From NCBI GenBank assembly GCA_963666835.2, contig CAXXGO010000001.1, positions 544,001 through 608,000 of the forward strand: DNA of 64,000 nucleotides. The letters run 5' to 3'. The position numbers and the translations under genes are program-made. The notes beneath the pieces were generated by a model, which was not told where the DNA came from, ran no database searches, and was given only the letters and a program-made list of their open reading frames with translations. The number at the start of each line of letters is the position of its first letter. The first letter of the stretch is position 1. The DNA comes from Phycisphaerae bacterium (GTDB taxonomy: Bacteria > Planctomycetota > Phycisphaerae > UBA1845). Shown here piece after piece: positions 960-46,925 of the stretch.

Positions 960-1110
960 GTAAGCGGGGTTGCCGTACATCTTGCCGCGGCCCCGGTTGA
1001 GGTTTTCGGATGACTTGATGAAGGGCAACCCGGCGGCGCCGGGTGGCTCGTTGAAGAGTAAGCCGACGTGGTTGCGCACCTTCGGGTGCTTGGCCGCGTC
1101 GGCTTTTTTA
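960..1110 (+). ncRNA. Conserved structured leader with terminator, copy 1 of 5
   Basis: Core TCGGATGACTT..GGGCAACCCGGC-nnn-GCCGGG..GTTGAAGAGTAAGCCGAC followed by a terminator hairpin and T run (1060-1109). Confidence 0.8.
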
Positions 1111-1158
1111 TTGATTTTGCCTGACGTCAGGATCATTCGGTCCACAAGGACGAACCTG

Positions 1159-1242
1159 ATGCATGAAATCGATTCGGCCATGGCAAAGCAGATCGGTCGG
1201 GTGGCTGCGACTTTTGAGCGGCAGACGACCGGCCGGGTCCCG
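1159..1242 (+). pseudogene. N-terminal fragment of a DUF2294/MpsC-family gene (type B)
   Basis: MHEIDSAMAKQIGRVAATFERQTTGRVP aligns with MDKPNSTMARQIAQAASVFEQQRTGNTP at 46974; similarity stops after about 28 aa. Confidence 0.7.
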
Positions 1243-1363
1243 GACCTGCAACGCAGAAAAGCTGAACGGTACGCCGGTGTACAGGCCCAGAGCGCGACAC
1301 TTGAACGATCATCCGCTCCAGTTCTTCATCGGCGCAAAATGGCTGGGGTTTCTCGTCGACACC

Positions 1364-1380
1364 GGCCTCCGGGTTATGAG
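1364..1380 (-). repeat. 17-bp direct repeat resembling a tRNA-fMet anticodon arm (copy A)
   Basis: CTCATAACCCGGAGGCC on the minus strand, identical to 7775-7791. Confidence 0.55.
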
Positions 1381-1671
1381 AGTGACGATGGCGAAAATCG
1401 TAACCTACTGCCACACCCGGACTTATGCGTATGCTCTTGTATGTTCGAAGGTAGGCCAGCACAACACGAGTGCGCCTCAACATCTGGGTGATCTTACCGC
1501 GTGCCCGAGCATCGACACGTCGACGCGACGAATTGCCCGGGACCACACCTCGCCGGTGATACGGCGGGCCCCCGACATTTTGGGCCGCTGCCCGTGGACC
1601 CGCGAGATGTTGACCCACCAGGGAACATATAAATGATGTCGGCTTGACGTGTGACGAACTGGAAATGTCGA

Positions 1672-1922
1672 ATGAGCTGGTTCCATACCATCCTCAGGTT
1701 TCTCTTCCTGGTGCCTGGCTGGCATCAGGTGAGGTTATTGCTCAATCGCCTGACCAGCGGTCCACCACGAGGTCAAACGCGATCGGTGGTCGAGAAGTCA
1801 CACATTGGACAAAGTTGCCGATGCTGGGAGATAAGGCCCGCGAGCACGGCTTCGAATTGCCGAACCCGCTGGGTGTCGCGGGCAGCTTCTACCTGGAGCG
1901 GCAGGACTTCGAAATTGCGGAT
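1672..1922 (+). pseudogene. 5' part of a putative outer-membrane protein gene, interrupted by IS1595
   Basis: Removing the IS and one TSD joins ..DFEIAD to LKVGFGDG.. in frame; a further frameshift near 1715 is likely. Confidence 0.7.
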
Positions 1923-1931
1923 CCTGATTCT

Positions 1932-2374
1932 CTACCTCGCTCCGGTGGTTAACTCCTTTAATGTCAGTGGTTTGGCAGCTACGGCCGCGATAACAAGGCG
2001 ATCGAAGAGTTTTGCTTCCATCCAGCGACGGTTGGCCCGATAGGTGAACGCGGCCAGGTAACGGTCGAGGTGTTTGGGCGAAACGCTGTGATATGTGCCC
2101 ACAATCATCCGCTTCAGGTTGCCGATGAAGGTGTGAACCCAGGGGAAAATTTGAACCGCATTCTTCCCACCGCCCGTCACGATTGCCTCGTGCTCGTACC
2201 CGGCCTTGGCCACTGAAACGTAACTTCCCCATCCGTCCGTCCGGAGACATGAGCCCTTTGCTATGTGCTTCGTCGTGAAGCCCTTCAGGCTCCGAGCGTC
2301 GACGCTTTTCAGTCCCTGAATGGCGATTCGCTTAGGCCGGTCGTTCTCATCAAGCTCGACGGCCACTCCCACTG
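1932..2374 (-). pseudogene. IS1595 transposase, C-terminal half
   Basis: LRTDGWGSY, PWVHTFIGNLKR, GTYHSVSPKHLDRYL..YRANRR. Confidence 0.9.
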
Positions 2375-2386
2375 TGTTGCCGGCGG

Positions 2387-2851
2387 TCAGGAAGCGCGTG
2401 ATTCCGGCGGTTTAGGCGGGTTTGGGTGTGGCGTGGGTTGGTCCGGCAGGTCGAGGCCGAGGGATCGGCAGAGGTCGCCGATGGAGATGGCTTCGCCGCC
2501 GCGCTCACGTTTTTCGGATCGTGGCAGTGGCAGCAGTTGCCAGATGCCGTCGGGGTGGCCTTGTCGCCATGGCCGGTGGGCGACCAGCCGCCACTCGAGC
2601 ATTCGTGCCAGCGCCTGGTCGACATCGTGTCGACTGATACCGAGTTTGGCGGCCATGCGCTCCCGGCTGAAGAAGGACGCTCCGTGGCGATCCGAGGCCA
2701 GGGCCAGTAAGACCATCACGGAGGTCCCCTCGGGCCCGAGGCGGGCCAGCCAATCGTCGTGGAGCAGGCGGTCCTCCAGCCAGCCGAACCGGCCGGTGGG
2801 CTGACGGACAAGATCAGGTACGGGTGGGATGAGGTTCGGCTTCTTGCTCAT
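2387..2851 (-). CDS. IS21 accessory protein, putative helix-turn-helix
   Basis: FFSRERMAAKLGISRHDVDQALARM; lies inside the IS ends. Confidence 0.65.
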   Translation of the reverse strand: MSKKPNLIPPVPDLVRQPTGRFGWLEDRLLHDDWLARLGPEGTSVMVLLALASDRHGASFFSRERMAAKLGISRHDVDQALARMLEWRLVAHRPWRQGHPDGIWQLLPLPRSEKRERGGEAISIGDLCRSLGLDLPDQPTPHPNPPKPPESRAS

Positions 2852-2939
2852 GGACTATTGCACTCCGGCGGCACGCTCACACGGCCCCGTATGCGTGATG
2901 CGAGCGTCGCAAGCTTCATATTCCGTCGCACACTTCACG

Positions 2940-3764
2940 TCATCCCTGCTTCGGCGTACGCGTGGGTTGCGTCCTTCCCTTCTTGCTTTTGGTCGCTCGC
3001 TTGCGCGCTTTCTCGGCAGCGTGCTGCTTGGCCTCCTTGGCGCGATACGAGTCGCCCTCGATCTTGACGATCTCGGCGTGATGCAGCAGGCGGTCGACCA
3101 GCGCTGTCACCGAGCTGGCGTTGGGGAAGACCTCGTTCCACTCGGCAAACGGCTTGTTGGTGGTCAGGATGATCGGCCGCTGCTCATGACGACGGCTGAC
3201 GACCTCGAACAGCAGATCCGCCGCCCGGCGGTCATAAGAGAGATATCCGACCTCATCGATCAGCAGGACTATAGGATTGACGTAGCGCCGCAGCGTACGC
3301 GCCAACGCAGTGGACGTATCCTGCGCAGCCAAGTCGTTGAGCATCGCGCTGGCTGTCGCACACAAGACGGTGTGACCTCGTAACAACGCCTGGTGGACGA
3401 TGTTCTGAGCGATCGTCGACTTGCCCACGCCGTTGGGACCGGCCAGGATGATGTTGGTCGCCTCACCGACGAAGCCCAGTTGCATCAGTTCCTCGATCAG
3501 TGGCCGATCGATGGTCTTCGGCCAGGACCAGTCGAAGTCGGCGATCGGCTTGAACCGGCCGACCTTCGACGTACGGATGCGTCGCTCCAAGCTCCGCCGA
3601 CTACGTTCCGCCTCCTCGCACTCGATCAGCGTGAGCACCCAGGGCTGATCGCCCAGTTCCTGCCAGCGGGCCAGCAGGCCGTACAGCCCGAGGCGCCGGG
3701 CGCGGTCCATGAGTGGATCAGGTGACGGACTACTCGTCGCGGTTGCTTTGCTCGTCATGGTCAT
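2940..3764 (-). CDS. istB: IS21 helper ATPase IstB
   Basis: Walker A GPNGVGKS, Walker B LLIDEVGY, DRLLHH and GDSYR motifs. Confidence 0.95.
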   Translation of the reverse strand: MTMTSKATATSSPSPDPLMDRARRLGLYGLLARWQELGDQPWVLTLIECEEAERSRRSLERRIRTSKVGRFKPIADFDWSWPKTIDRPLIEELMQLGFVGEATNIILAGPNGVGKSTIAQNIVHQALLRGHTVLCATASAMLNDLAAQDTSTALARTLRRYVNPIVLLIDEVGYLSYDRRAADLLFEVVSRRHEQRPIILTTNKPFAEWNEVFPNASSVTALVDRLLHHAEIVKIEGDSYRAKEAKQHAAEKARKRATKSKKGRTQPTRTPKQG

Positions 3765-5310
3765 ATTCCTCCTGGCGGTCGTCGTTATCTGTGCCTTGAG
3801 CACGCTGTTCGAACGGTTCCCGCGCGTCGACGATGCCTTGGCTCAGTTCGTCATAGCTTTCCAGCGTATGCGGTTGGATGGTGAGATCGCGTACCCGGGG
3901 ATCATCCGGAAGTGCGACCGGCAGCGTAGGGCTTCGTCCTTCCGCGCGATGCTGTCGTTCCAAGATCTGCCGAACCGCGTGATGGTGCGGGATGTCCTTC
4001 TCTATCGCTTCGCGGATCGCCTGCTCCAGACGGGTGCCCCCGAACTCCTCGAGCAAGCGCAACAGGCGTGCGGTGGCCGTGCCGAGATTGGCGCCGCGCT
4101 GGGCCAGGCAGGTCAGCAGATCCCGGCTGGCCGGTGCGGATGCGGTGAGTCGGTCCATGCCGCGGTGCGATCGGGCTTGTTGCTTATGCCCGACGAGCCG
4201 TTCGATGTGCTCGGGATTTTCGATCTGCCGGTGGCGGTCGAAGCTGCGGTCATGTTCGGCTACGACGATGCCCCGGTGCATGATGCGCACCGTCTGGAGG
4301 CTCGCTACCACCACGACGGTCTGGCGTACCAGTTCGTGCGGTACCGAGTAGTCGTTGTGGTCGAAGCGGATGTACGGCGTCTTGCCCACGTTGAGTTCGC
4401 GCCGTTCGTCGGTGACAAACGGGGTGTGCGGCAGCGGCAGAAGCAGGGCTCGTTCCTTCTCGAAGGCTTCCGCAACCGTCAGGCGGTCATCCTCGACCCA
4501 GCGGCGATTGCAGGCCGGCCCATCACACCACGCTTGTGCCTGGTCGTTGAGATCATCCACATCCTTGAAGCGGCGGGCCAAGAAGAAGGCGCGGCGTATG
4601 TACTGAATAGCCCGCTCCACGCGACCTTTTTCGTTCCCTCGGGCCACCGCGACCGGCCGTGGGGCGAAGCGATAGTGTCGAGCGAAGTCGAGCAGGAGGG
4701 GATTGAAGCGGATGGCATCGCCTCGACGTTCGAGTACGGCGCTTTTCAGGTTGTCATACAGTGCGACGCGTGTCACCCCGCCCCAATCGGCAAACGCGGC
4801 CTCATGCCCGCGCAGGAAGTTCTCGGTTTGTTGCCCGAGGTAGAAGCGCAGGAAGATCCGGCGCGAGTAGGAGAGCACCATCACGAAGGCCGACAGATGG
4901 CGTTGTGCCCGGCCGACGGTCAGCTTGCCGAAGTGGCCCCAGTCGACCTGGGCCTGCTCGCCGGGCAGTGTTCTGACCCGAAGATACGCCTCGGCTGTCG
5001 CGCGGGGACGGTAGGTGGCGACCATGTGGCGGAAGTGATCCGGGCTGCCGCGGTACCCGCGCTCGTGGCACATCTCGTAGAGTCGACTGGCCGGGAGCTT
5101 GGGATACTGCTTCCACGTCGCGACAATCAGCGGGATAAAGGGATCCAGCTGGGTGGTGCGAGATCGTTTGGATGCCGCGGTGCCGTCTTGGGCGAGCACC
5201 CGCCGGACCGCGCTATGGTGGACACCCAGCTGGCCGGCGATGGTGCCGACCCGCCACTTCTCCGCGTGGTAGAGCCGCAGGATTTCCGCTTCGGTTTGGG
5301 GTGAAATCAT
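3730..5310 (-). CDS. istA: IS21 transposase IstA
   Basis: PGEQAQVDWG, YDNLKSAV, EKGRVER, YSVP motifs. Confidence 0.95.
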   Translation of the reverse strand: MISPQTEAEILRLYHAEKWRVGTIAGQLGVHHSAVRRVLAQDGTAASKRSRTTQLDPFIPLIVATWKQYPKLPASRLYEMCHERGYRGSPDHFRHMVATYRPRATAEAYLRVRTLPGEQAQVDWGHFGKLTVGRAQRHLSAFVMVLSYSRRIFLRFYLGQQTENFLRGHEAAFADWGGVTRVALYDNLKSAVLERRGDAIRFNPLLLDFARHYRFAPRPVAVARGNEKGRVERAIQYIRRAFFLARRFKDVDDLNDQAQAWCDGPACNRRWVEDDRLTVAEAFEKERALLLPLPHTPFVTDERRELNVGKTPYIRFDHNDYSVPHELVRQTVVVVASLQTVRIMHRGIVVAEHDRSFDRHRQIENPEHIERLVGHKQQARSHRGMDRLTASAPASRDLLTCLAQRGANLGTATARLLRLLEEFGGTRLEQAIREAIEKDIPHHHAVRQILERQHRAEGRSPTLPVALPDDPRVRDLTIQPHTLESYDELSQGIVDAREPFEQRAQGTDNDDRQEEYDHDEQSNRDE

Positions 5311-5322
5311 CGGGTTCGGCCC

Positions 5323-6096
5323 TCACCATCGACCAGCGGAGTGCTCCACGCGGCGGCGATACGCGCTGAGCGTCTCCCATCGGGCATACAACCCGCACGG
5401 CCGGCCGCAGAAATCGCAGCGCCGGACGGTCTGACCGGCCTGACCGGTCGACAGCGAGACCGGTATGCGGTGGGCGATGACAGGCGTACGGCTTGATGTC
5501 GCATCACAGGCCTCCTTCGGGGCACTTCTTAACGGAACCTCTTCTCGCAAGTGGCTGTGAGTTGTGGAAGGGTGATGCGTTACGGTTGTTACAATCCGCG
5601 CGGCCGATCGCATGCGCCATCGTTTCTGGCGAGCAGCGTTATTGCGGGCGCCGGGGGGCGTTTTCTGGTAGCGCCTGGCCGCTTCTCGGAGGCTTCGCCG
5701 CCGCAGGGCTTGGCGGCAATGGGGCGAGCAGTAGCGCTGGCCCCGGTCGCACCAGGAGCAGATCGCGACCTGCTGATGGCACCATACGCAGTTGAATAGC
5801 CGGTAGCTCTTGTCGACGGCCCAAACTCCCGCCAGAAATAACTGGACGCCAAGGCCGCTACCGCCGACACACCTGATGATTTGTGTGGTGTCGCTGCGGC
5901 TTTGGCCCGGGCGATAACCCGGAAGCCCAGACCGTCGCTCAACGGCCTGGGCTTCACGTTTTTCGGCAGGGATGTTGTCGTACCGAAGGAATCGGTCGGT
6001 GGTCACATCAGCATCGACCGCGCCGACACACCAAAGCCACCGGTGGAAACCAGATCCCCCAGATGGCACCTGCGGCCAGCCCCAATCAACGCTCAC
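5323..6096 (-). CDS. IS21 accessory Cys-rich protein (true start probably near 5830-5900)
   Basis: CxxC..CxxCDRGQRYC and a C-terminal CDFCG; directly upstream of istA. Confidence 0.55.
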   Translation of the reverse strand: MSVDWGWPQVPSGGSGFHRWLWCVGAVDADVTTDRFLRYDNIPAEKREAQAVERRSGLPGYRPGQSRSDTTQIIRCVGGSGLGVQLFLAGVWAVDKSYRLFNCVWCHQQVAICSWCDRGQRYCSPHCRQALRRRSLREAARRYQKTPPGARNNAARQKRWRMRSAARIVTTVTHHPSTTHSHLREEVPLRSAPKEACDATSSRTPVIAHRIPVSLSTGQAGQTVRRCDFCGRPCGLYARWETLSAYRRRVEHSAGRW

Positions 6097-6264
6097 GAGG
6101 GCGAAGGAAGAAGAAGAGAGTCAGATCCAGAGGAAAACCAGATCCACCAGGCATGCGCCGGGGGAAAGAACCATATCCAGCGCCTACGCGCAACGAAAAC
6201 CACAAACGCCGCGGCGAGCTACACCGCCGGAATCACGCGCTTTCAAACCGCCGCGGACACACTG

Positions 6265-6772
6265 GGACCTTCTTCTCCACCCCACGCCCCGGCCGACCCG
6301 GTTCCCGGCCGCCAACGTATGTCTCGTCGACCTCCACAAGTCCCTGCAGGACATAACGTTGGCATCGTTGACGCATGGCCTCGCGGAGCTTCTGCAGCAT
6401 CATCCAGGCAGTCTGGTAGCAGACCTGGATCTGCTTGGCCAACGCCGTGGCCGCGAGGCCTTTCTTCGAGTGAGCCTCTTGATACATAGCCCAGAACCAC
6501 TTCCAGAGCGGCACGCGGGCACCGTGAAACACCGTGCCGGCCGTCGGTGAGGTCTGATGGTGACACTCCCGGCACTCGACGAGCCCTCGGGTCGGGAGCC
6601 ACCATCCGCGGTTATGCCCACAGTCCGGGCAGACGAACCGTTCCAGCTTCGGTCCCCAGCGAGCTTTACGCAGATACGCGGCACAGGCCGCATCATCTCC
6701 GAAGCGACGCATAAACGACGCTACATCCAAGATCTTGGGCACGGGATGCTTCGGGCGAATCTCGTCAGACAT
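6265..6772 (-). pseudogene. IS1595 transposase, N-terminal half
   Basis: Zn ribbon CPDCG..CRECHHQTS and VEVDETYVGG. Confidence 0.9.
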
Positions 6773-6862
6773 GGCCGACCTCCTCCATGAACCATGAAAT
6801 CGTAAGCCCTAACAAATACCGTACTTAGCCGCCGGAGTCAAGTAGAGAATCAGGTTGCGGAT

Positions 6863-7525: not shown

Positions 7526-7774
7526 ACTATGCGATCCCTTTCAGCAGGCACTGACGTAGGACGGCTGAGGAGGGCCATGACTGATCGGCCTTCGAGAAAC
7601 CCTTTCAGCAGCGTGTGAAGCACATGGGCATCGAGGGAGTCGTCACAGCGGCGCGTCACATCCATGGCAGAATCCGTATTGCGAACGTCTGGTTGGCTCG
7701 ATTCGGCGAGAGTGCCTTTCACGTGTCATCGTTATTAACGAACGACATCTCACGCGAATTCTCCGGTCATACCT

Positions 7775-15958: not shown

Positions 15959-16144
15959 TGTGACCCCGCACGTGTCCTGCCCAGCGGTTGACGCGTTGCC
16001 AGGCCGAGACGGCGACTCCGCCACACCCGAAACCCTCGCCTGTCGGCTCCTTGCACGACAGGACGTCGAACCATGGACGCAGAATCTACCTACCTTTCCA
16101 AGAATCTGGCTACCGCTGGCGAGGCGAGGACGTATAATATAGCA

Positions 16145-16296
16145 GTGAGCGGGGTCGCGGCGTACCATGCGGCGGGTCCGACCGCTGTTCTCGGATGACT
16201 TAATGAAGGGCAACCCGGCGCTGCCGGGTGGCCCGTTGAAGAGTAAGCCGACGTGGTTGAGCACTTACGGGTGCTTGGCCGCGTCGGCTTTTTTTT
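16145..16296 (+). ncRNA. Conserved structured leader with terminator, copy 2 (ahead of groEL)
   Basis: Same core; TATAAT at 16133-16138; terminator 16245-16296. Confidence 0.8.
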
Positions 16297-16360: not shown

Positions 16361-17980
16361 ATGCCGCCAAAGACGATTGCATATGCTGACCGAGGCCGAG
16401 AGGTGATCCGGCGCGGCGTGAGGCAACTTGCCCGCGCAGTGAAAGGAACCCTGGGCCCGCGCGGACGAAACGTCATGTTCAATAAGGGCTTCGGCCCACC
16501 GCTGATCACGCGCGACGGCGCGACCGTCGCCAAGCAGATCGATCTGCCCGACCCCATGGAGAACATCGGGGCCCAGATGATCAAGGAGGTGGCCAGGAAG
16601 ACAGCCAAAGACGCAGGCGACGGAACAACCACCGCCACGATCTACGCTGAAGCGATCTTCGAGGAAGGGCTGAAGAACATCACCGCCGGAGCAGAGGCCA
16701 TGGAAGTGCGGCGGGGTATCGAGCGCGCCGTCGCTGCGGTGGTAGAGGCTCTCAAGAACATGTCGGTGGATATTAAGAGCACCGACCAGATGGTGCGGGT
16801 CGCGACCTGTGCGGCCAACCACGATGAGAACGTCGGGCGTATCGTCGCCGAAGCCATGGAGTCAATCGGCCGCATAGGTGTTCCTACGATCGAGGAGGGT
16901 CAAAGTCTCGACATTACTGTCGAGCGTGTCGACGGCCTCCAATTCGATAAGGGTTTCCTATCGCCCTACTTCATCAACGAGGCCGCTAAGGGGCAGTGCT
17001 GCCTGGAGAAGCCGTACATCTTGGTCCACGAGAAGAAGATCTCCTCGGCAAAGGACTTCCTCCCCCTGTTGGAAGAAATAGCACAGAGTGGGAGGCCATT
17101 GTTGGTGATCGCGGAGGATGTCGACGGGGAGGCCCTCACAACGCTGGTCGTCAATCAGCTTCGAGGGACCTTGCAGTCTGCCGCAGTCAAGGCTCCCGGC
17201 TTCGGCGATCGGCGAGGGGCGATGATGGAGGACATCGCGATTATGACCGGTGCCCGGGCTTTGTTGGAAAGTCTGGGCACCAAGCTGGAGAACGTTTCCC
17301 TCGCGGACCTCGGGCAAGCCGAGAAGGTGATCATCGAGAAGGAGCAAACCACGATCATAGGCGGCTCCGGCTCGAAGGACAGCGTCGACGCGCGGATTGC
17401 TCAAACCAAGAAGGAGATGGACCTAACCACGTCCGACTATGACCGCGAGCAGCTCGAAAAGCGTTTGGCCAAGCTGACCGGAGGAATCGCGCGGATCAAG
17501 GTCGGCGGCGCCACCGAACTTGAGGTCAACCACCGTAAGGAGTTGATTGAGGACGCGCTTCAGGCCTGCCGCGCCGCGCTCGAGGAGGGTGTACTCCCGG
17601 GAGGAGGCGTCGCGGTGCTGCGCTGCCTTCCCGCGTTGGACAAGATGCGCAAGACGTTGATCGGAGATCAGAGAATCGGCTCCGATATCGTCAGCCGAGC
17701 CCTTCGAAGCCCGATCAAGCAAATCGCCAAGAATGCCGGGCAGGACGGTTCAATCGTCCTCAACAAGGTGCTCTCGTCTGATAGCGCAAGCTTCGGATAC
17801 AACGCGCTCACCGACAAGTACGGCGACCTCGTGGCGATGGGTGTGATCGTGCCGACCAAGGTGGAGCGGGTAGCGTTGCAGAATGCCTCCTCAGTTGCGG
17901 CGCTCCTGCTGACGACAGACGCCGTGATATGCGAGATCAAGAAGGGAGAGAGCCAAGATCCGTCGCGCAACTCCTCTTAG
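16361..17980 (+). CDS. groEL: Chaperonin GroEL
   Basis: TLGPRGRNV, GDGTTTAT, KAPGFGDRR. Confidence 0.97.
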   Translation: MPPKTIAYADRGREVIRRGVRQLARAVKGTLGPRGRNVMFNKGFGPPLITRDGATVAKQIDLPDPMENIGAQMIKEVARKTAKDAGDGTTTATIYAEAIFEEGLKNITAGAEAMEVRRGIERAVAAVVEALKNMSVDIKSTDQMVRVATCAANHDENVGRIVAEAMESIGRIGVPTIEEGQSLDITVERVDGLQFDKGFLSPYFINEAAKGQCCLEKPYILVHEKKISSAKDFLPLLEEIAQSGRPLLVIAEDVDGEALTTLVVNQLRGTLQSAAVKAPGFGDRRGAMMEDIAIMTGARALLESLGTKLENVSLADLGQAEKVIIEKEQTTIIGGSGSKDSVDARIAQTKKEMDLTTSDYDREQLEKRLAKLTGGIARIKVGGATELEVNHRKELIEDALQACRAALEEGVLPGGGVAVLRCLPALDKMRKTLIGDQRIGSDIVSRALRSPIKQIAKNAGQDGSIVLNKVLSSDSASFGYNALTDKYGDLVAMGVIVPTKVERVALQNASSVAALLLTTDAVICEIKKGESQDPSRNSS

Positions 17981-26698: not shown

Positions 26699-26701
26699 GC
26701 C

Positions 26702-38850: not shown

Positions 38851-41800
38851 TGACGTCAGGTGCAACTCCACCCGCTGTCGACTCCAAGCACGGCTTCACC
38901 AATGCCATTGTACGGGCTTTCTTGGAGTCGAATCTGTCGCTAGTCCTGATTCTGCTGGCCGCAGCGCTTGGGATGACCGCGCTCGCAGTCACACCGCGCG
39001 AGGAAGACCCACAAATCGTGGTGCCCATGGCCGACGTGTACGTGGACTTTCCCGGGCACTCGGCCGAGGAAGTCGAACAACTCGTGACCACCCCGCTGGA
39101 GAAGCTGCTCTACGAAATCGACGGCGTTGAGTACGTCTACTCGATGTCCCGCGAAGGATCGGCCATCATCACGGTTCGCTACTTCGTGGGGGAAGACCGC
39201 GAACGCAGTCTGGTGAAGCTCTACAAACGCATTGACGAGCATCTCGACATCGTACCGCCCGGAGTGGCCGGCTGGGTGATTAAGCCGGTCGAGATCGACG
39301 ATGTCCCCATCATCACGCTAACGCTCTCCAGTGCCACATCGGACGGGCACGTCTTGCGTCGTGTTGCCGAGGAACTGGTGCAGCGGCTCTCCACCGTCGA
39401 GAACCTCTCGCGGGCGTACGTCGTGGGTGGCCAGCCGCGCGTCGTCCATGTCTATCTTGATCCCCGCCGCATGGAGGGTTATCGAATCTCTCCGCTCGAC
39501 GTCAAACAGGCGATCGAGTCTGCCAATGTGACAGCCATTGTAGGGAGCTTCGCCCGCGAAGACAGGTCGCAACGTGTCGAGGTCGGGACGGCGTTCGCCC
39601 ATCCTGATGAGCTTCGCGATCTGGTGGTCGGCGTATCCGGTGATCGACCCGTCTTCCTGAAGGATGTCGCCCGCGTTGTTGACGGGGCGTGGGAGGTGAC
39701 GGACTACGTTCGTCATGGCTGGGGGCCGGCACGGGGTTTCGAGCATCGCAAGTCATTCACCGGCACACTCGCGGACGGCGACGGCGCTGCCGATGGCCCC
39801 GATGCTGCAAGTGTGCCAGCGGTCACGATCGCGCTCGCCAAGAAGAAGGGCACGAATGCCGTCAAGGTCGCTGAAGAGATTCTCTTGAAAGCGGAGTTGC
39901 TCAAGCGTGAGGTCGTTCCGGATGACGTCGACATGGTCATCACGCGCAACTACGGTCTAACCGCCGACGAAAAAGTGAACGAACTGGTCGAAGCCTTAGG
40001 CGTGGCTATCTTCATCGTGATCGCCTTGCTGACGCTGGGGCTGGGATGGCGCGAGTCGCTGATCGTTGTCCTGGCAATCCCGGTCGTGTTCGGCTTGACC
40101 CTGACGGTCAACCTGCTCTTCGGCTTCACCATCAACCGTGTGACGCTCTTTGCGCTAATCCTCTCCCTCGGCCTGCTCGTGGACGACCCGATCGTGGATG
40201 TCGAGAACATCTCGCGACACTTTGGGCTCCACCGTCGAGCCTCACGGGACATTGTTCTCGAGGCTGTTGCCGAGATCCGCCCCCCGCTGATCACCGCCAC
40301 GTTGGCCGTCATTGTCTCGTTTCTACCAATGTTCTTTATCACGGGCATGATGGGGCCGTACATGCGCCCGATGGCCCTAAACGTCCCGATAGCGATGCTC
40401 ATGTCGATGGTGGTGGCCTTCACCATCACTCCTTGGCTTTCGTTCCACCTGCTCAAGAGGAAGTACTCATCTGGCGATCCGGTGCCTGACCAAGTCGCCG
40501 ATGTGCATGATACCAGCAAAGTGAAGAAGTCGATGCTCTATCGGTTCTTCTATCCACTGATGGCCCCGCTTCTCCATTCGCGCATGAAGGCTTGGGTATT
40601 TTTGGTGATCATGGGTAGCCTCACCCTGCTGGCGGCCGGGCTGGCTGTGACCCGGCACGTTCCCTTGAAAACGCTGCCGTTCGACAACAAGAACGAATTG
40701 CTGTTCGTGCTCGATCTTGACGAGGGGACAACGCTGGAACGTACGGACGCGTGCGTTCGCGAGGTTGAGGAGTACCTGTATGGCGTGGTGGAGGTGACCG
40801 ATTTTACTTCCTTTGTCGGTCTCTCCTCTCCGATGGACTTCAATGGCATGGTGCGGCACTACTACCTGCGCCGCGGAGACAACGTTGCCGAGATTCGAGT
40901 CAACCTGGTGGGTAAGAAGAGCCGCAGCCAGCAGAGCCACGCCATCGGACTGCGTATCCGCGACGACCTGACGCAGATCGCCCGGAGGCATGATGCAAGC
41001 CTGAAGATCGTTGAGATCCCACCCGGCCCGCCGGTCATTGCGACTGTTGTGGGCGAAATCTACGGCCGGCCGTATCACTCCTACGATGCCCTTATTGAAG
41101 CCGCCAAGGTATTGCGGGCCCGGCTCGAGGCCGAGCCTGGTATTGTGGATGTCGACGACTCCGTCGAGGCCGATGAGACTAAGGTGGTCTTCCGCACCGA
41201 CAAGGAGAAGGCGGCGCTGAACGGTGTCACGGTGGCCGAGATCGTCGAGACGCTCGAAATCTGCCTGGACGGCGTGTCTGGCGGCACCGTGCATGTGCGT
41301 TCCGAGCGCCATCCGCTCCTCATCGAGTTGCGGCTGCAAAGGGCCATCCGTTCCAGTGTCGCCGATCTTGCCGAAGTGCGTGTCAAGGGGCGAAATGGGA
41401 ACGTGGTGCCACTGGCAGAACTCGGACGATGGGAGAACTCACGCTTAGACAAAACCATCTACCACAAGAACCTGCGTCGGGTGGCGTATGTGTTTGCCGA
41501 GACCGCCGGGCGCGCTGCAGCTGATACCGTCGTCGACATTCAAGCCGACCGTGTGGTTGAGACGCTCAGCATGCCGATTGGCGCATCGGTGCTGGGCAAC
41601 GGATGGATCAGTACGGCAAGCCCGAGGCCGACGGCTGGACGTACTTTCTTCAACAACGGCAGCGGAGTCCCGTGGTACGTTCCCGAGGGGATTGAAGTCG
41701 ACTTTGCCGGTGAGGGTGAGTGGAAGATCACGCTGGACGTCTTTCGCGATCTGGGTCTGGCGTTTGCGGCGGCCTTGGCGGGCATTTACATTCTTCTTGT

Positions 41801-42308
41801 CGGACAGACACGTTCATTCGTGGTCCCGGTGGTGGTCATGCTCGCCATTCCGTTAAACATACTGGGCATCATGCCGGGCTTTTGGCTGCTCAATGTTATT
41901 GCCGGCGACACGGTCGGCTCCTACGCTGATCCGATCTTCTTCACCGCCACCGGCATGATTGGCATGATTGCCTTGGCCGGGATTGTGACCCGGGACTCGA
42001 TCATCCTTGTGGATTTCATCCATCTTTCTCTTAAACGGGGACGATCACTCTTTGATGCTATCATGGAAAGCCGCGTCGTGCGACTGCGCCCCATCCTGCT
42101 GACCGTGGCGACGGCCATGCTGTCCGCGGTGCCGATTACGATCGACCCGATCTTCTCGGGCCTGGCATGGTCGCTGATCTTCGGCCTTTTCGCTTCCACC
42201 GTGTTTACGCTTTTTGTTATCCCAATCGCCTACTGGCTGATTTATGCTAATCGCCCGGGGCACGGGGAACAGCACCCCCGGCCCGTGACACAGCAAAACC
42301 CTGCATGA
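38847..42308 (+). CDS. RND efflux permease
   Basis: PREEDPQI, GLLVDD, RLRPILLT. Confidence 0.95.
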   Translation: MMTSGATPPAVDSKHGFTNAIVRAFLESNLSLVLILLAAALGMTALAVTPREEDPQIVVPMADVYVDFPGHSAEEVEQLVTTPLEKLLYEIDGVEYVYSMSREGSAIITVRYFVGEDRERSLVKLYKRIDEHLDIVPPGVAGWVIKPVEIDDVPIITLTLSSATSDGHVLRRVAEELVQRLSTVENLSRAYVVGGQPRVVHVYLDPRRMEGYRISPLDVKQAIESANVTAIVGSFAREDRSQRVEVGTAFAHPDELRDLVVGVSGDRPVFLKDVARVVDGAWEVTDYVRHGWGPARGFEHRKSFTGTLADGDGAADGPDAASVPAVTIALAKKKGTNAVKVAEEILLKAELLKREVVPDDVDMVITRNYGLTADEKVNELVEALGVAIFIVIALLTLGLGWRESLIVVLAIPVVFGLTLTVNLLFGFTINRVTLFALILSLGLLVDDPIVDVENISRHFGLHRRASRDIVLEAVAEIRPPLITATLAVIVSFLPMFFITGMMGPYMRPMALNVPIAMLMSMVVAFTITPWLSFHLLKRKYSSGDPVPDQVADVHDTSKVKKSMLYRFFYPLMAPLLHSRMKAWVFLVIMGSLTLLAAGLAVTRHVPLKTLPFDNKNELLFVLDLDEGTTLERTDACVREVEEYLYGVVEVTDFTSFVGLSSPMDFNGMVRHYYLRRGDNVAEIRVNLVGKKSRSQQSHAIGLRIRDDLTQIARRHDASLKIVEIPPGPPVIATVVGEIYGRPYHSYDALIEAAKVLRARLEAEPGIVDVDDSVEADETKVVFRTDKEKAALNGVTVAEIVETLEICLDGVSGGTVHVRSERHPLLIELRLQRAIRSSVADLAEVRVKGRNGNVVPLAELGRWENSRLDKTIYHKNLRRVAYVFAETAGRAAADTVVDIQADRVVETLSMPIGASVLGNGWISTASPRPTAGRTFFNNGSGVPWYVPEGIEVDFAGEGEWKITLDVFRDLGLAFAAALAGIYILLVGQTRSFVVPVVVMLAIPLNILGIMPGFWLLNVIAGDTVGSYADPIFFTATGMIGMIALAGIVTRDSIILVDFIHLSLKRGRSLFDAIMESRVVRLRPILLTVATAMLSAVPITIDPIFSGLAWSLIFGLFASTVFTLFVIPIAYWLIYANRPGHGEQHPRPVTQQNPA

Positions 42309-42316
42309 TGCCGGGA

Positions 42317-42910
42317 CTATCCTCCCCTCATCTCGCTCATTCCCGCGGTTACGGCGAACCGCATCGCCTGCTCGATGGACATGTCGATTGGTTGGACAGC
42401 CGAGCGCGGGACCATTGTCGTGAACCCGCCGATCTGGTAGCTCATCGGCAGATAGACCGCCACGTTACCATCGCCACCGATCCCGGCCGGCAGGTCGCCG
42501 AAATCCTCTCGCGTGATAAACCCGATGAAACGTAGCGGGGTGTTCCCGACGGAAACCACGACGGCCTTGCGAATCGTTTTCTTGTCGGAGCCTGAGAAGA
42601 AGCCCATCAGGTCGCGCACGGACCCATACAGCGCCTTCACCAGGGGAATTCGCTCCACGAACCTCTCGCCCCATCGAAACACCTTTCGAAAGAGCCACGC
42701 CTTCATCAAAACGCCAATCACGAAGACCAAAGCCAGCCCGGCCACGACGCCCATCCCCGGCCAGTACAGGCTGCTCGGGACAAGCATCTTCAGTCCTCGT
42801 CCCAGGAAAGACTCTGCCGCGCTGCCCAGCCAGTACAGCACATAGAGCGTCACCGTGACCGGCAGAACGGCGGCCAGCCCTGTGAGAAACATCCTTATAA
42901 CCAGCTTCAT
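42317..42910 (-). CDS. DUF502 membrane protein
   Basis: RIPLVKALY, VYLPMSYQIGG. Confidence 0.85.
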   Translation of the reverse strand: MKLVIRMFLTGLAAVLPVTVTLYVLYWLGSAAESFLGRGLKMLVPSSLYWPGMGVVAGLALVFVIGVLMKAWLFRKVFRWGERFVERIPLVKALYGSVRDLMGFFSGSDKKTIRKAVVVSVGNTPLRFIGFITREDFGDLPAGIGGDGNVAVYLPMSYQIGGFTTMVPRSAVQPIDMSIEQAMRFAVTAGMSEMRGG

Positions 42911-43211
42911 GTTCACGTTCCTTTCGAAAGCCGCCCGGGCGTTGATTCATCAGAAGAGTCCTCCATGCTCGCGAAAAGCGCCCACGTGGCCCGTGTCCAG
43001 CACAACATCACCCTTCTCCGAAGGCACGGCAGCCTAGCACGGATCTTCGCGCTCACAAGGTTTTCGCCGAGGCTCTGGCGGCCTCGCCGGCACCAATGAT
43101 GTCCCAGAACTCGCCGGGAACGTGGCGCTGAGAGAGGATCCCCGGAAGCGAGCTCCATTCGTCCTGTCCACGGGCGTGCTACGATGCGCTGTAGGCTGCT
43201 TGAGGGGGGGC

Positions 43212-43592
43212 CTAGACTTTCTTTTTCTCGCGGAAGAGTGGCGACTCGGCCAAGGTGAAGACCACGATCTCTTCTCCGGTGGTGGTGCTGATGTCGTGGT
43301 GCAGGCTCACGACCTTGATGCCGGTGACCTCCTGGACCGTCGATTCCAGGACCGGCCGGGCCGTTTCGATGAGTTGGATCCTCACTTGCTTGAGCAAGTC
43401 CCGGCCCTTCTCGGTTGGTTGCGACTGGACGAGATGCTGCTCGGCCGCGGTCAGAACGCCCTGAAGACGGACCACGAGGAGGTCGCTAATCAAGTGGGAC
43501 TGGATATTCTTCGGCCCGCGGCCCATGAACTCCTGTTCAAAACGCCTGATGCCCTCGGAAACGGCAGCCTCGATTTCTCCCTGTGTTTTCAT
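43212..43592 (-). CDS. DUF2294/MpsC-family protein (type A)
   Basis: GRGPK, GVLTAAE, VTGIKVVSLHHDIST..GEEIVVFTL. Confidence 0.88.
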   Translation of the reverse strand: MKTQGEIEAAVSEGIRRFEQEFMGRGPKNIQSHLISDLLVVRLQGVLTAAEQHLVQSQPTEKGRDLLKQVRIQLIETARPVLESTVQEVTGIKVVSLHHDISTTTGEEIVVFTLAESPLFREKKKV

Positions 43593-43779
43593 CGTGACCT
43601 CCAACCTGTCCCACGTACCGGTCAAAGTCTGGCAGAGGCGAAACGTTTACTCGGCCAAAAGCGAAACCGTCTGGCGTCGGAAACCTGCGTAGTAGCAGGG
43701 AATCGCCGACCGGGTAATAATTCTGCTTTGTTTCTCAGAAACTGCAAGCATCGGCGCGCCGATGGAGTATACTATAGTA

Positions 43780-43931
43780 GTGAGCGGGGTTGCCGTACGC
43801 CTAACGGCGGCTCCGGTCGAGGTTTTCGGATGACTTAATAAAGGGCAACCCGGCGCTGCCGGGGCGTCCGTTGCAGAGTAAGCCGACGTGGTTGCGCACC
43901 TTCGGGTGTTTGGCCACGTCGGCTTTTTTTT
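43780..43931 (+). ncRNA. Conserved structured leader with terminator, copy 3
   Basis: Same core; TATACT at 43768-43773; terminator 43880-43931. Confidence 0.8.
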
Positions 43932-43944
43932 GAGGAGTTCAACC

Positions 43945-44211
43945 ATGGTTATCGGAGTAATCGGCTGGATCGTGTTGGGGCTCATCGCCGGCTACATTGC
44001 CAGCACGCTGGTAAACAAGCGTGGCAAAGGACTCGCCTTTGATATTCTGCTCGGCATGGTCGGCGCGGTGATTGGCGGCTGGATCTTCAACGCGGCCGGG
44101 GCTACCGGCGTGACGGGCTTCAATGCCTGGAGCCTTCTGGTGGCCGTGGTCGGAGCGGTGGTAGTGCTGGTAGTCTGGCACGCCATCCGACGCTCGGCCC
44201 GGCGCGCATGA
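43945..44211 (+). CDS. GlsB/YeaQ/YmgE stress membrane protein
   Basis: WIVLGLIAGYIA..GMVGAVIGG. Confidence 0.9.
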   Translation: MVIGVIGWIVLGLIAGYIASTLVNKRGKGLAFDILLGMVGAVIGGWIFNAAGATGVTGFNAWSLLVAVVGAVVVLVVWHAIRRSARRA

Positions 44212-44280
44212 ACTTCACGATATCGACGTGAAAGGACCGCCTCATGTAGCGGCGTGAGTCCTCTCTCGTCGAGGCAGCGG

Positions 44281-44441
44281 TAGAAGATGTACGGAGCCAA
44301 CGGTGACGTTTCGTTCGGCTCCAATCATGGTTTGAGTCGGATGACTAGATGAAGGGCAACCCGGCCTGGCCGGGGGGCTCGTTGAAGAGTAAGCCGACGT
44401 GGTCGCGCACCTTCGGGTGTCTGGCCGCGTCGGCTTTTTTT
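44281..44441 (+). ncRNA. Conserved structured leader with terminator, copy 4 (ahead of the Hsp20 pair)
   Basis: GGAGCC/GGCTCC 5' hairpin, core, terminator 44391-44441. Confidence 0.8.
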
Positions 44442-44499
44442 GTTCTTGGCGGCCGCGGTGGTGCGGACGAACGATCCTTTCGCAGAAAGGTGCAGAGAC

Positions 44500-44949
44500 A
44501 TGTTAAGAACCCGATGGCATCCTTTGGGCGTGGTGTGGCCGGAGATGAACCGTCTGCCGGCGGAAATGGAGCATAGGTTAGGCCGTTTTGTGATGAACGA
44601 CCCGAGGCGGCTTGCCCACAGCGCCTATCCGCCGCTCAACCTCTGGGAGGACGACAACAACCTGTACGTCGAAGCGGAACTTCCCGAGCTTGAGGTGACC
44701 GACCTGGAGATCTTTGTCAAAGGCGACAACGAGCTGTCGATCAAAGGCGAGCGCAAGCAACCCGAACTGGGAGAGGGCAAGTGGCATCGTCGGGAGCGAG
44801 GCCATGGTGAGTTCTCGCGGGTGGGCGTGTTGCCTCACTACGTGGACAGCGACAAGGTCACGGCCAAATTCAGGCACGGTGTGTTGACCATCACGTTGCC
44901 GAAGCGAAAGGAGGCCCAGGCGCGGCGAATCGAGGCCAAAGCCACCTAA
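44500..44949 (+). CDS. Hsp20 small heat shock protein
   Basis: YPPLNLWED, GVLTITLPK. Confidence 0.92.
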   Translation: MLRTRWHPLGVVWPEMNRLPAEMEHRLGRFVMNDPRRLAHSAYPPLNLWEDDNNLYVEAELPELEVTDLEIFVKGDNELSIKGERKQPELGEGKWHRRERGHGEFSRVGVLPHYVDSDKVTAKFRHGVLTITLPKRKEAQARRIEAKAT

Positions 44950-45108
44950 TTCCGACACCGGCCGCGTCTCGCCCGCCTTCCACGTCGGCAGGTTGGGTCG
45001 AAAGTGGCCATGTCACGGGAGGTGGGCCTCGACACGAAATCGGCGGTCAATGCGAGCGCGAAACAACGTTTTGGAACGTATTTTCTTGACAAAGTGGAGG
45101 TGCAAACC

Positions 45109-45504
45109 ATGACACCAACCTTAACGACGGAAGAAACCCACAGCGACGTTGCCCCCGTGGAACGTACACTCGGTGGGATTACTTTCAGTCCCCGGTTCGA
45201 CATCTGGGAGAACGACGACGAGACGATTCTGTACGGCGATCTACCCGGTGTCATGCCGAGGGATTTGGATGTTAGCTTCGAAAAGCCCGTGCTGACGATT
45301 CACGGCAAAGTCAGTCCGCGCCACGATGACATCAAGTTCCTGCACGGCGAATACGGAATCGGCGATTTTCACCGTACGTTCACCATCGGCGAAGCGATCG
45401 ACACGGAGAGGATCTCCGCCGAATTCAAGAACGGTGTCCTGACCGTGCATTTGCCGAAGGACGAGAAGGTGAAACCGCGTGAGATCGAGGTCAAATGCCG
45501 CTGA
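45109..45504 (+). CDS. Hsp20 small heat shock protein
   Basis: PRFDIWE, NGVLTVHLPK. Confidence 0.92.
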   Translation: MTPTLTTEETHSDVAPVERTLGGITFSPRFDIWENDDETILYGDLPGVMPRDLDVSFEKPVLTIHGKVSPRHDDIKFLHGEYGIGDFHRTFTIGEAIDTERISAEFKNGVLTVHLPKDEKVKPREIEVKCR

Positions 45505-45753
45505 TGCAAAGACCTCTGAGGAATCGTATCTGGTTCGAAATCGGAGCCGCTGGCGCCGAAGGCAAAGGACGCTGCGCTGAGCCCTCCTCGTGTCACCACA
45601 ATGAAAGGTCTTCCAGTTGCTCCATTCTGATCATCCTGCTGCCTACGGGACGCACGTGATCACCAGCGCAGCGAGATCGTCTGCGCTCAAGAAGGAGGTC
45701 TGGTTATGACTCGATTCGCTTGGATGACTGATTGATCTAAAAGGAGAATCTTC

Positions 45754-46740
45754 ATGGATCCTATCGTGTATGCAGTGATCTTCGCCGTTGTCGTTCCTTT
45801 AGTGGTCTTTTTCTCGGGCATCAGGCTTGTTCGTCCAACACACAAGGGACTCGTCGAGAGGCTCGGCAGGTACCGGCGCTTCGCGAATCCGGGTTTCAAC
45901 TGGATCATCCCTGTCATTGACAGAATGATCAAGGTCAACACGACGGAGCAGATGGTTGATGCCCAGCCGCAAGAGATCATCACCAACGACAATCTCAACG
46001 CCAGGGTGGATGCCCAAGTCTACTTCAAAGTGAAGGACGACGAGGAAAGCGTCAAGAGTTCCCAGTACCACGTCAACAACTACCAGAGTCAGATTGTCAG
46101 CCTGGCTCGGACGACACTCCGCAATATCATCGGCACGTTAACCCTGAAATCCGCCAACAGCGAACGAGACAACATCAACGGTGCGCTTCTGACTACGTTG
46201 AGCAAGGAAACCATGAGCTGGGGAATGGCGATTGTCAGGACCGAACTGAAGGAAATCGACCCTCCCAAGGATGTCCAGGAGACGATGAACAAGGTTGTCA
46301 AAGCGGAGAACGAGAAGGTAGCCGCCTTGGATTTCGCCAACGCGGTCGAGAGACAGGCGGATGGGGAAAAGAGGGCGGAGATCAAGAAGGCCGAAGGCAT
46401 CAGGCAGGCCAAGATTCTTGCGGCGGAGGGCGAGGCTCAGGCAATAAAGCTCGTGAATGAGGCGGCGAACACATACTTCATTGGAAACGCACAGCTTCTG
46501 AGGAAGCTGGAGGCCCTCGAGAGCTCATTGAGCCACAATGCCAAGATCGTCATTCCGTCAGGCTGTGAACTGGTCAATGTCATCGGAGAGATGGCCGGCG
46601 TTTTGCCGCTGGCGGGCGGAAACGGACGACGCCGAAGCGAAGACGGAAAACACGGGTCCGCGGAGTTGGCGCGGGCGGCCCAGCGGGTGGTCAAGCCTTC
46701 TGTTATGAGGGAGGAGGTCCGCTCGCAGCCTGCGCTGTAG
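45754..46740 (+). CDS. SPFH/band-7 protein
   Basis: VERLGRY, TTLRNIIG, AEGEAQAI. Confidence 0.92.
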   Translation: MDPIVYAVIFAVVVPLVVFFSGIRLVRPTHKGLVERLGRYRRFANPGFNWIIPVIDRMIKVNTTEQMVDAQPQEIITNDNLNARVDAQVYFKVKDDEESVKSSQYHVNNYQSQIVSLARTTLRNIIGTLTLKSANSERDNINGALLTTLSKETMSWGMAIVRTELKEIDPPKDVQETMNKVVKAENEKVAALDFANAVERQADGEKRAEIKKAEGIRQAKILAAEGEAQAIKLVNEAANTYFIGNAQLLRKLEALESSLSHNAKIVIPSGCELVNVIGEMAGVLPLAGGNGRRRSEDGKHGSAELARAAQRVVKPSVMREEVRSQPAL

Positions 46741-46766
46741 ATGCTGGTCGGCATTCATGCGGTCAG

Positions 46767-46925
46767 TAGAGGATGTACGGAGCCACCGGTGACGTTTGAT
46801 TCGGCTCCGATCACAGTTTGAGTCGGATGACTAGACGAATGGCAACCCGGCCGTGCCGGGGGGCTCGTTGAAGAGTAAGCCGGCGTGGTCAGACACCTTA
46901 TGGTGTCCCACCGCGCCGGCTTTTT
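46767..46925 (+). ncRNA. Conserved structured leader with terminator, copy 5 (ahead of DUF2294 type B)
   Basis: Core plus a terminator with compensatory substitutions (46877-46925). Confidence 0.8.

Follow-up and report, generated by a model that had tools for sequence, protein, structure and literature searches.

Within a 64,000-nucleotide (nt) stretch of a Phycisphaerae bacterium genome (contig CAXXGO010000001.1, positions 544,001 to 608,000; C1:544001-608000 of the genome), which we call the window throughout, five copies of a structured leader RNA stand in front of genes for chaperones, for a YmgE-like protein and for proteins that belong to, or at their N-terminus resemble, the DUF2294/MpsC family. 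Comparative analysis identifies this leader as a member of a genuine conserved RNA family, one of which neither Rfam 15 nor the literature searched offers a description. We consider it very probable that the element is a cis-acting attenuator leader whose intrinsic terminator is conditional. The fuller explanation that we prefer, an attenuator gating a stress regulon with a protein module favoured as its trigger, is one in which we place middling confidence.

An earlier, sequence-only reading placed the five copies correctly, all on the + strand, with cores starting at 1006, 16191, 43826, 44337 and 46823. Nine copies, 82-100% identical by BLAST, are present in the 6.02-Mb genome, the four outside the window lying at C1:521884(+), C1:525200(+), C1:527686(+) and C1:146595(-). 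From core to T-run all copies have the same length, with no insertions or deletions, and across the nine the identity per column is 91%, with 75 of 106 columns invariant; the invariant core of the five window copies reads TCGGATGACT. A covariance model of core plus terminator built from the nine genomic copies (R1) returns those nine at 112-124 bits and otherwise only antisense overlaps of at most 40 bits and one unrelated match of 22.9 bits, a signal far beyond chance. The copies are partly non-independent, because window 44337-48073, which holds copies 4 and 5, is a 3.7-kb segmental duplication 99.1% identical to C1:525200-528936.

RNAalifold on the copies resolves four parts, P1, core, P2 and terminator, in keeping with the layout first proposed: a 5' hairpin that pairs while varying in sequence, then UCGGAUGACU without variation, then a stem, which covaries, and last an intrinsic terminator. 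Copy 1 extends over 961..1109 (R1 121.6 bits), with P1 at 961-999, the core UCGGAUGACUU at 1006-1016, P2 at 1013-1059, the terminator at 1060-1105 and the T-run at 1104-1109, as delimited by alignment, consensus fold and minimum free energy (MFE) structure. Copy 2 occupies 16141..16296 (124.1 bits; P1 16141-16189, core from 16191, terminator 16245-16290, T-run 16289-16296) and copy 3 occupies 43781..43931 (117.2 bits; P1 43781-43819, core from 43826, terminator 43880-43925, T-run 43924-43931). The remaining two are of a second type: copy 4, which has no TATAAT, at 44293..44441 (117.6 bits; P1 44293-44322, core from 44337, terminator 44391-44436, T-run 44435-44441), and copy 5 at 46778..46925 (112.1 bits; P1 46778-46809, core from 46823, terminator 46877-46922, T-run 46921-46925). 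The types are those of the P1 sequence, GCGGGGUUGCCG.../...CGGCGGCUCCG in copies 1-3 and GGAGCC.../...GGCUCC in copies 4-5. The core UCGGAUG is unpaired in the consensus. P2 is built from a base (ACUU/GAGU), a 6x6 internal loop (nnURAA / GUUnnn), the stem P2a (GGGC/GCYC), an AA bulge and the stem P2b (CCCGGC/GCCGGG) with a small variable loop, and the terminator abuts it directly, with a 20-21 bp stem followed by 5-8 U/T in all nine genomic copies. Finer points of the original description are present as well, namely the variable 3-nt loop, GTTGCAGAGT in copy 3, a TACG-type loop in copy 2 and, in copy 5, the compensatory changes GCCGGCG/CGCCGGC and ACACC/GGTGT. A simple terminator scan makes one full call (copy 2, 20 bp) and finds partial stems elsewhere.

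The structure is preserved well beyond this genome. Within the order, R1 detects the motif in 22 of 61 genomes: 13 of 36 from the same family, 8 of 24 from ten other families, and this genome itself. Up to 17 matches occur per genome when antisense matches of the same sites are counted in. When 66 strong matches are aligned, 92.7% of cells pair, and sliding the 3' partners by 1-3 columns lowers this to 34-51%; double changes occur in 23 of 35 pairs, and not one of 500 column shuffles attains these levels. Scanned with a degenerate pattern, species-representative genomes yield at least 130 stretches, which among the matches listed (80 rows) are labelled Pirellulales, Pirellulaceae, Thermoguttaceae, Planctomycetaceae, Gemmataceae, Isosphaeraceae, Tepidisphaeraceae, Phycisphaerae/Phycisphaerales and Candidatus Kuenenia, with one row labelled Halieaceae. 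Of these 80 loci, 73 were given to the covariance model, seven overlapping duplicates being left out, and 71 were confirmed at E <= 1e-8; the Halieaceae locus and one locus at a contig end were unmatched. In a second, independent alignment of 83 rows, three weak antisense rows among them, 91.4% of cells pair versus 31-45% when slid, and double changes affect all four pairs of P2a, all six of P2b and 13 of 21 in the terminator. The sequence-only reading had called for a covariance model and a covariation test; against slid partners, and in the first alignment also against column shuffles, the helices covary well above controls in both alignments. The P2 base (ACU/AGU) and the terminator base (AAGCCGAC/GUCGGCUU) are almost invariant, so covariation is uninformative on them. 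P1, unconstrained in sequence, is a hairpin in nearly all members: an uninterrupted run of at least five pairs forms in 139 of the 143 segments folded, and the mean z relative to shuffles is -1.15.

Three further features were considered and set aside. An apparent G15/A49 to A/C loop covariation among the nine copies fails in the 66 members, where A:A occurs 12 times, A:C five times and G:C three times. A leader peptide starting from ATGACT was rejected on the grounds that several members have C or A in place of the T in this ATG. An anti-antiterminator formed by the P1 3' arm (UCCGA) and UCGGA was dropped as a general feature, GCTCC/UCCGA being found in just a quarter of members and often abutting the core.

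Strong sequence conservation and multiple copies would also fit an element that acts, or merely spreads, as DNA, such as an operator, an extracytoplasmic function (ECF)-type promoter (GGCAAC ... CGTT) or a repeat resembling a miniature inverted-repeat transposable element (MITE). The ECF promoter consensus is GGAAC-N16-17-CGTT, and the GGCAAC-N19-CGTT of the leader resembles it, but the would-be spacer is a covarying stem, and its length changes with the P2b loop, which measures 2-3 nt in some members and up to 8 nt in others. Compensatory changes preserve pairing, conservation reaches across classes of the phylum and beyond one genome, and no CIRCE-like operator is present in the window within 3 mismatches. 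Orientation to the downstream gene is likewise constant. We took as the downstream gene the longest same-strand open reading frame (ORF) starting between -8 and +250 nt from the element end, for 147 elements; an ORF of at least 50 amino acids (aa) follows 143 of them, the other four including some at contig ends, and 99 of the 143 ORFs have a Pfam family (E <= 0.001). With only the same strand scored in this way, all nine genomic copies and the 99 Pfam-supported cases precede a same-strand gene within 250 nt, and the random orientation or position expected of a MITE-like repeat is not what we see. Covariation already largely refutes a DNA-level or selfish element, which we rate as the most improbable of the readings considered.

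The predicted terminator is an integral part of the element. A terminator-free model of the 61-nt hairpin up to AAGCCGA (R2) recovers, in this genome, the nine known sites and nothing that lacks the terminator. In an even sample of the phylum R2 matched 7 of 151 genomes, this genome included, a figure that does not represent prevalence because filters were stricter and scoring stopped at 36 candidates in each genome. All eight strong R2 matches elsewhere in the phylum have a hairpin and T-run directly 3'. Two weak matches, in GC-rich surroundings and without a terminator, were taken as false.

The sequence-only reading did not recognise the leader as a known family, and Rfam 15 gives no match in the 64-kb window at gathering thresholds, DUF1646/Na+, nhaA-I/Li+, c-di-GMP-I and ydaO/c-di-AMP being among the families covered. 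Relaxing E up to 10 on copy 1 brings only four chance-level matches (12-19 bits, where the thresholds are 44-160), a search of 43700-47000 at E up to 1 brings one miRNA match (24.5 bits, threshold 76), and eight loci with distant members give tRNA only. A description of the motif is absent from the literature searched by full text, and a term look-up in the main texts of two Breaker-lab genome surveys returned neither the motif nor any mention of Planctomycetes. The Streptococcus YjbJ motif of those surveys is unrelated to the leader.

The attenuation that we propose turns on the 3' strand of the P2 hairpin. Transcription would start a few bases 5' of the variable P1 hairpin, and next a long irregular hairpin would form, with an invariant base, a purine-rich internal loop and the covarying stems GGGC/GCYC and CCCGGC/GCCGGG, its base made of 5'-UCGGAUGACUU with GAGUAAGCCGA-3' and including A.G and G.A mismatches. 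AAGCCGA would serve both as the last seven bases of this hairpin and as the first seven of the 21-bp terminator, which leads into the U-run. While the base helix is held, a leftover upper hairpin away from the U-run would remain, allowing read-through (ON); once the base helix is displaced, the full terminator would form (OFF). Read-through would require a kinetic window or a factor holding or releasing UCGGAUG, and our guess for such a factor is a CsrA-family protein on the invariant GGAUG, for which the acidic DUF2294 proteins would act as partners or sensors.

An antiterminator of this kind had been put forward in the sequence-only reading, as a pairing of TCGG..CTT with AAGCCGA, and its geometry is sound. 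The UCGGAUGACUU:GAGUAAGCCGA helix would run U-A, C-G, G-C, G-C, A.G, U-A, G.A, A-U, C-G, U-A, U.G, with 9 of 11 positions pairing, so as to extend the P2 base and use AAGCCGA of the terminator 5' arm. In four of the five copies UCGG:CCGA is part of the MFE structure of the nascent transcript, taken as far as the terminator loop, 87% of cells in the helix pair across 65 members, and the bases at -1 and -2 are able to extend it onto C62/G63 in 83 and 96 of 139 members. Covariation is silent on this point: the antiterminator pairs are nearly invariant, and it therefore cannot confirm the pairing. Distances from T-run to ATG are 49, 64, 13, 58 and 48 nt for copies 1-5, and at copy 3, where a GAGGAG ribosome-binding site directly follows the T-run, the interval is too short for a second promoter, so that the YmgE-like gene would be transcribed only via terminator read-through.

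In the predicted energies, the terminator lies below the forced antiterminator at 37 C by 9.0, 8.9, 7.3, 9.8 and 15.0 kcal/mol (copies 1-5). Since the antiterminator would form first and the terminator wins at equilibrium, some decider must set the lifetime of the base helix, and temperature alone is unlikely to be that decider. If the leader were an RNA thermosensor, heat would tip the terminator to the antiterminator and induce groEL and hsp20, a notion that owes its appeal to the groEL and two hsp20 genes lying after the motif here. From 20 to 45 C, however, the gap goes from 9.9 to 8.3, 10.5 to 8.1, 7.3 to 7.8, 12.7 to 9.0 and 18.3 to 13.1 kcal/mol, a change of 0.5 to 5.2 that never inverts it and leaves the terminator favoured throughout; the Shine-Dalgarno sequence is outside the structure, the heat-shock genes among the 143 downstream ORFs are confined to this genome, and there is no match to ROSE, FourU or any other Rfam thermometer. 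Thermosensing is in our view very improbable.

The genes that follow the leader across the phylum form a candidate general-stress regulon. By Pfam, the downstream ORFs comprise MpsC/DUF2294 (31), CsrA (7), KaiC (5), CsbD (4), OmpA (4, three with collagen repeats) and PRC barrel (3); YflT, BON, ferritin/Dps-like, Host_attach/baeRF12, hsp20, Transgly_assoc, DUF5670, DUF1571, fatty-acid desaturase and Ice_binding with two each; groEL, DUF892, DUF883_C, DUF3309, a SpoIIE-type phosphatase, an ECF sigma factor, a histidine kinase and a sigma-54 activator with one each; and a tail of enzymes. These counts are slightly redundant, as a few loci are the same contig reached by two routes. Such gene content is typical of general-stress and stationary-phase regulons (sigma-B, sigma-S, EcfG), and it is on this resemblance that we read the leader-led genes as a general-stress set. 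The groEL, Hsp20, YmgE and DUF2294 targets named in the sequence-only reading are indeed downstream of the leader here, but its emphasis on groEL and hsp20 holds only locally: the groEL and both hsp20 matches all come from this genome, which makes the heat-shock flavour local and the phylum-wide set one of general stress. No description of stress-gene control in Planctomycetota was found in the literature searched.

The nine genomic copies precede a DUF2294-like remnant, groEL, a YmgE-like gene, an hsp20-hsp20-SPFH series (twice), an A-type DUF2294 gene with baeRF12 (twice), another A-type DUF2294 gene and a SpoIIE-family phosphatase. In the window, groEL (Cpn60; 16361..17980, +; PF00118, E 6.3e-79) follows copy 2, and the Transgly_assoc (YmgE/GlsB-like) gene (43945..44211, +; PF04226, E 4e-13) follows copy 3. 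After copy 4 come hsp20 44500-44949, hsp20 45004-45504 (both PF00011) and SPFH/Band 7 45754-46740 (PF01145), together spanning 44500..46740 on the + strand. After copy 5 come an A-type DUF2294/MpsC gene at 46974-47393 (PF10057, 78.5 bits) and a Host_attach/baeRF family 12 gene at 47629-48072 (PF10116, PF18856), spanning 46974..48072, also on the + strand. The gene after copy 1 (1159..1491, +) is DUF2294-like at its N-terminus only (hhalign probability 94.8%, over residues 1-29 only). It has no Pfam match and no further similarity by tblastn, and the part beyond residue 29 is rich in arginine and resembles nothing else; gene decay or a frame problem may be the cause.

Several of these neighbourhoods have features of their own. 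The duplicated segment contains a leader, hsp20, hsp20, SPFH, a leader, DUF2294-A and baeRF12; the flanking DUF2294-B and promoter region (43219-43930) is just 84.6% identical to its counterpart, and the paralogous cluster is without the ymgE-like gene and without one leader. One metatranscriptome contig (X4) joins 44240 to 45751, omitting 1510 nt (leader 4 and both hsp20 genes), so a related organism seemingly has a ymgE-like gene directly before its SPFH gene. Host_attach/baeRF12 genes, which are release-factor-like, recur in leader-led operons of several genomes (window 47629-48072, L061:781-1404, L082:644-1123, L068:728-1267), and this hints at a translation-linked stress function. Leader-led KaiC-KaiB-PAS operons adjoin a B-type DUF2294 gene in two relatives (L062:4747-8154 in G008 and L065:2627-5885 in G004), which gives the appearance of a signalling module of KaiBC type placed under the leader.

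Upstream of the leader, a TATAAT (copies 1 and 2; the -10-like box of copy 1, read from the sequence, is at 947..952, +) or TATACT (copy 3, 43768-43773) lies about 10 nt before P1, and copies 4 and 5 have no such box. A simple sigma-70 scan calls no promoter at the boxes of copies 1-3, because they are without a TTGACA-like -35. Among members generally, the word CTTGC is present in 69 of 143 upstream regions, with 34 occurrences 81-95 nt 5' of the core; CTTGCT is followed about 17 nt on by TAnAAT and often preceded by GAATYCA. Since the CTTGCT-N17-TAnAAT word precedes about half of the leaders, the unit has the look of a leader placed behind a strong promoter of sigma-70-like type. The promoter word, GAATYCA-CTTGCT-TTCC...N17...TAnAAT, is conserved across families (e.g. 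L141, L063, L068) and extends past the -35 hexamer, and it may mark a dedicated sigma factor or activator site. This genome and its family instead have GAATC-N-GGCAAC ... GTATAMT 5' of the leader. Between the GAATC/GGCAAC-like box and the TATACT of copy 3 we read a perfect 14-bp palindrome, ATCGGCGCGCCGAT, at 43750..43763 (no strand assigned), which recurs upstream of the C1:525200 copy and is imperfect at copies 1 and 2; it is a candidate operator and could serve the divergent DUF2294-B gene. One locus, L117, carries two complete leader units in tandem (1080-1186 and 1201-1307, 15 nt apart), the second without a P1 hairpin and without its own promoter.

As to what sets the switch, tight linkage to DUF2294 and to a CsrA paralog raises the likelihood of a protein effector to at least that of a small ligand, and we put a protein trigger a little short of an even chance. 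In this genome all six PF10057 genes adjoin a copy of the motif, three A-type genes (78 bits) downstream of it and three B-type genes (116-124 bits) divergent from it. The B-type gene of the window (43212..43625, -; PF10057 123.8 bits) diverges from the copy-3 promoter and has no motif before it, and the same layout is found at two other genomic copies and in relatives. In five other genomes, 20 of 22 PF10057 rows are within 700 nt of a motif match; of the two exceptions, one is cut off from the motif by a transposase ORF and the other is on a contig without a match. This DDE transposase ORF (L060:8029-9561, in the relative G060) sits in an 18-kb island with seven leaders, between a B-type DUF2294 gene, itself truncated, and the leader that comes next. 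Across the 61 genomes, motif and DUF2294 occur together in 21, the motif only in one, DUF2294 only in four and neither in 35, counts that, like those for CsrA below, ignore kinship. Their patchiness within a single family (motif in 13 of 36, DUF2294 in 14 of 36) suggests that the two have been gained and lost together.

A second protein recurs in the same operons. Housekeeping CsrA (PF02599, 86-93 bits) is present in all 61 genomes, and a divergent CsrA paralog (34-60 bits; 11 rows, in 10 of the 22 genomes that have the motif) directly follows an A-type DUF2294 gene in a leader-led operon. The paralog retains the N-terminal MLVLSRK and VHREE, with a short insertion present; the VHREE stretch carries what we take to be the RNA-binding arginine of CsrA. 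A short AGUY/GACU hairpin that would place GGA in a loop is possible in only about half of the members. Two DUF2294 proteins are acidic (pI 5.3 and 6.1), a weak hint, by comparison with FliW-CsrA, of a protein partner rather than an RNA binder, and the AlphaFold2 model of DUF2294 has a pLDDT of 78.5. In the literature searched, DUF2294 comes up in a single, unrelated paper. The SELEX consensus of CsrA is RUACARGGAUGU, and the invariant core of the leader shares GGAUG with its centre (PMC7652899).

Several observations weigh against an attenuator that is triggered in this way. In the antiterminator, pair 6:61 has three double changes versus 16 non-pairs. The leader has a single invariant GGA, the ACA of the SELEX consensus is absent, and GGA is not enriched in the 60 nt 5' of the core (95 of 143, versus 94 of 143 in the control). 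This genome has housekeeping csrA only, without the paralog, 1 Mb from any copy, and the presence of CsrA in every one of the genomes surveyed holds for those with and without the motif. The motif is undetected in four genomes that have DUF2294; with filters off, none was found beside the DUF2294 genes of three of them, nor beside one stray B-type gene. The DUF2294 fold is unassigned, with a best E of 0.075 by Foldseek against the PDB, a best Z of 5.1 by VIA-align and nothing below E 0.3 in a PDB sequence search. Finally, metatranscriptome contigs (X1, X4, X6, X8) show that genes of relatives occur in RNA libraries, where DNA is possibly present, and do not speak to transcript ends or levels; two X4 contigs cross terminators (43858-44156 and 44380-44604).

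A small-ligand trigger is nearly as likely, though we put it well short of an even chance. The leader would then be an ON-type riboswitch for a small molecule or ion, its irregular hairpin, with an A.G/G.A base helix, internal loop and AA bulge, being an aptamer for a stress signal (alarmone, second messenger or ion); the ligand would hold the base helix and block the terminator, and DUF2294 would merely be the commonest regulated gene. Conserved unpaired nucleotides flanked by covarying stems 5' of a gene are what a structured sensing domain would show, and the putative aptamer 3' strand is common to the terminator 5' arm. High copy number is typical of signalling-molecule riboswitches such as c-di-GMP-I, and this leader precedes unrelated genes in many copies (9 here, and up to 16-17 matches per genome with antisense ones included). 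The tandem units in L117 fit a riboswitch, as does the lack of a universally linked RNA-binding protein, the CsrA paralog being adjacent in 10 of 22 genomes. Against this, the stems are unusually conserved for an aptamer (with C-G, for instance, in 60 of 65 rows at pairs 26:42 and 27:41), no similar aptamer exists in Rfam, and the gene set has no transporter or biosynthetic theme and hence offers no ligand candidate. The divergent DUF2294 gene, co-inherited and not controlled by the leader, resembles one half of a regulator-target pair.

The units might alternatively act in trans, as a multi-copy family of small RNAs of about 170 nt, transcribed from strong promoters, that expose UCGGAUG between two hairpins and titrate CsrA in the manner of CsrB/Rsm, read-through being secondary; such a role would be compatible with cis attenuation. 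A box resembling a promoter and a strong terminator come with each unit, UCGGAUG is unpaired in the terminator-state MFE structure, and nine copies coexist here with a CsrA that all 61 genomes possess. Copies 4 and 5 and the second L117 unit, however, have no promoter of their own, the 13 nt after copy 3 leave no room for a separate gene promoter and so make read-through necessary, and no orphan copies stood out, given that 4 of 147 elements are without an ORF of at least 50 aa and some of these are at contig ends. Moreover, a unit has one invariant GGA, compared with many in known sponges (PMC7652899). We regard a sponge as improbable.

Returning to the cis-acting attenuator, its significance lies first in the regulon that the element flags, a candidate general-stress set of DUF2294, CsbD, YflT, BON, Dps/ferritin, DUF892, KaiBC, hsp20, groEL and baeRF-like genes, to which the orphan players DUF2294/MpsC and the CsrA paralog are tied. 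If a ligand is the trigger, the leader would be a new multi-copy riboswitch class; if CsrA and DUF2294 are, it would be a new mode of CsrA action. More tentatively, one RNA element, rather than an alternative sigma factor, might define the general stress regulon of the phylum, either as a riboswitch for a new stress signal or as the first example of direct action on an intrinsic terminator by a protein of the CsrA family, DUF2294 proteins being its partner-switching sensors. The 60-nt hairpin and terminator are small enough for direct in-vitro work.

Among known systems, ROSE and FourU thermometers and CIRCE/HrcA lie between promoter and heat-shock genes, as the leader does at groEL and hsp20. 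They differ from it in that the Shine-Dalgarno sequence of the leader is free, its energy gap is temperature-insensitive, it has no Rfam match and the window has no CIRCE repeat. Set beside it by description, the adenine pbuE/ydhL ON riboswitch has the layout that we propose for the leader: the 3' strand of a basal helix doubles as the terminator 5' arm, so that a held helix gives read-through into a same-strand gene. Unlike pbuE/ydhL, the leader is a single irregular hairpin and not a three-way junction, it matches neither the purine nor any other Rfam family, and its stems are far more conserved.

The ribonucleic antiterminator (RAT) bound by BglG, LicT and SacY is a conserved, imperfect, mismatch-containing hairpin that overlaps the terminator 5' arm by a few bases, as is proposed for the leader, and the logic would be alike, in that termination is the default and a factor stabilises the antiterminator. 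By contrast, the sequence of the leader is unrelated, its hairpin is twice as long and its genes serve stress rather than sugar use. The RNA-binding domain of such proteins, CAT_RBD (PF03123), has no matches in this genome, which is 92.3% complete, and the control search was positive in 4 of 14 named genomes.

The CsrA/RsmA leaders and the FliW-CsrA switch offer the remaining comparison. The csrA paralog stands beside a small acidic DUF2294 in a leader-led operon, as fliW stands beside csrA. CsrA leaders have two or more GGA sites close to RUACARGGAUGU, typically in the loops of short hairpins, whereas this leader has one invariant GGA and no ACA, and the known mechanisms of CsrA act on translation, mRNA decay and Rho-dependent termination, whereas the terminator here is intrinsic. 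The invariant GGAUG of the leader is nevertheless a candidate CsrA site (PMC7652899), and in CsrA-controlled leaders and this leader alike the targets are stationary-phase and stress genes.

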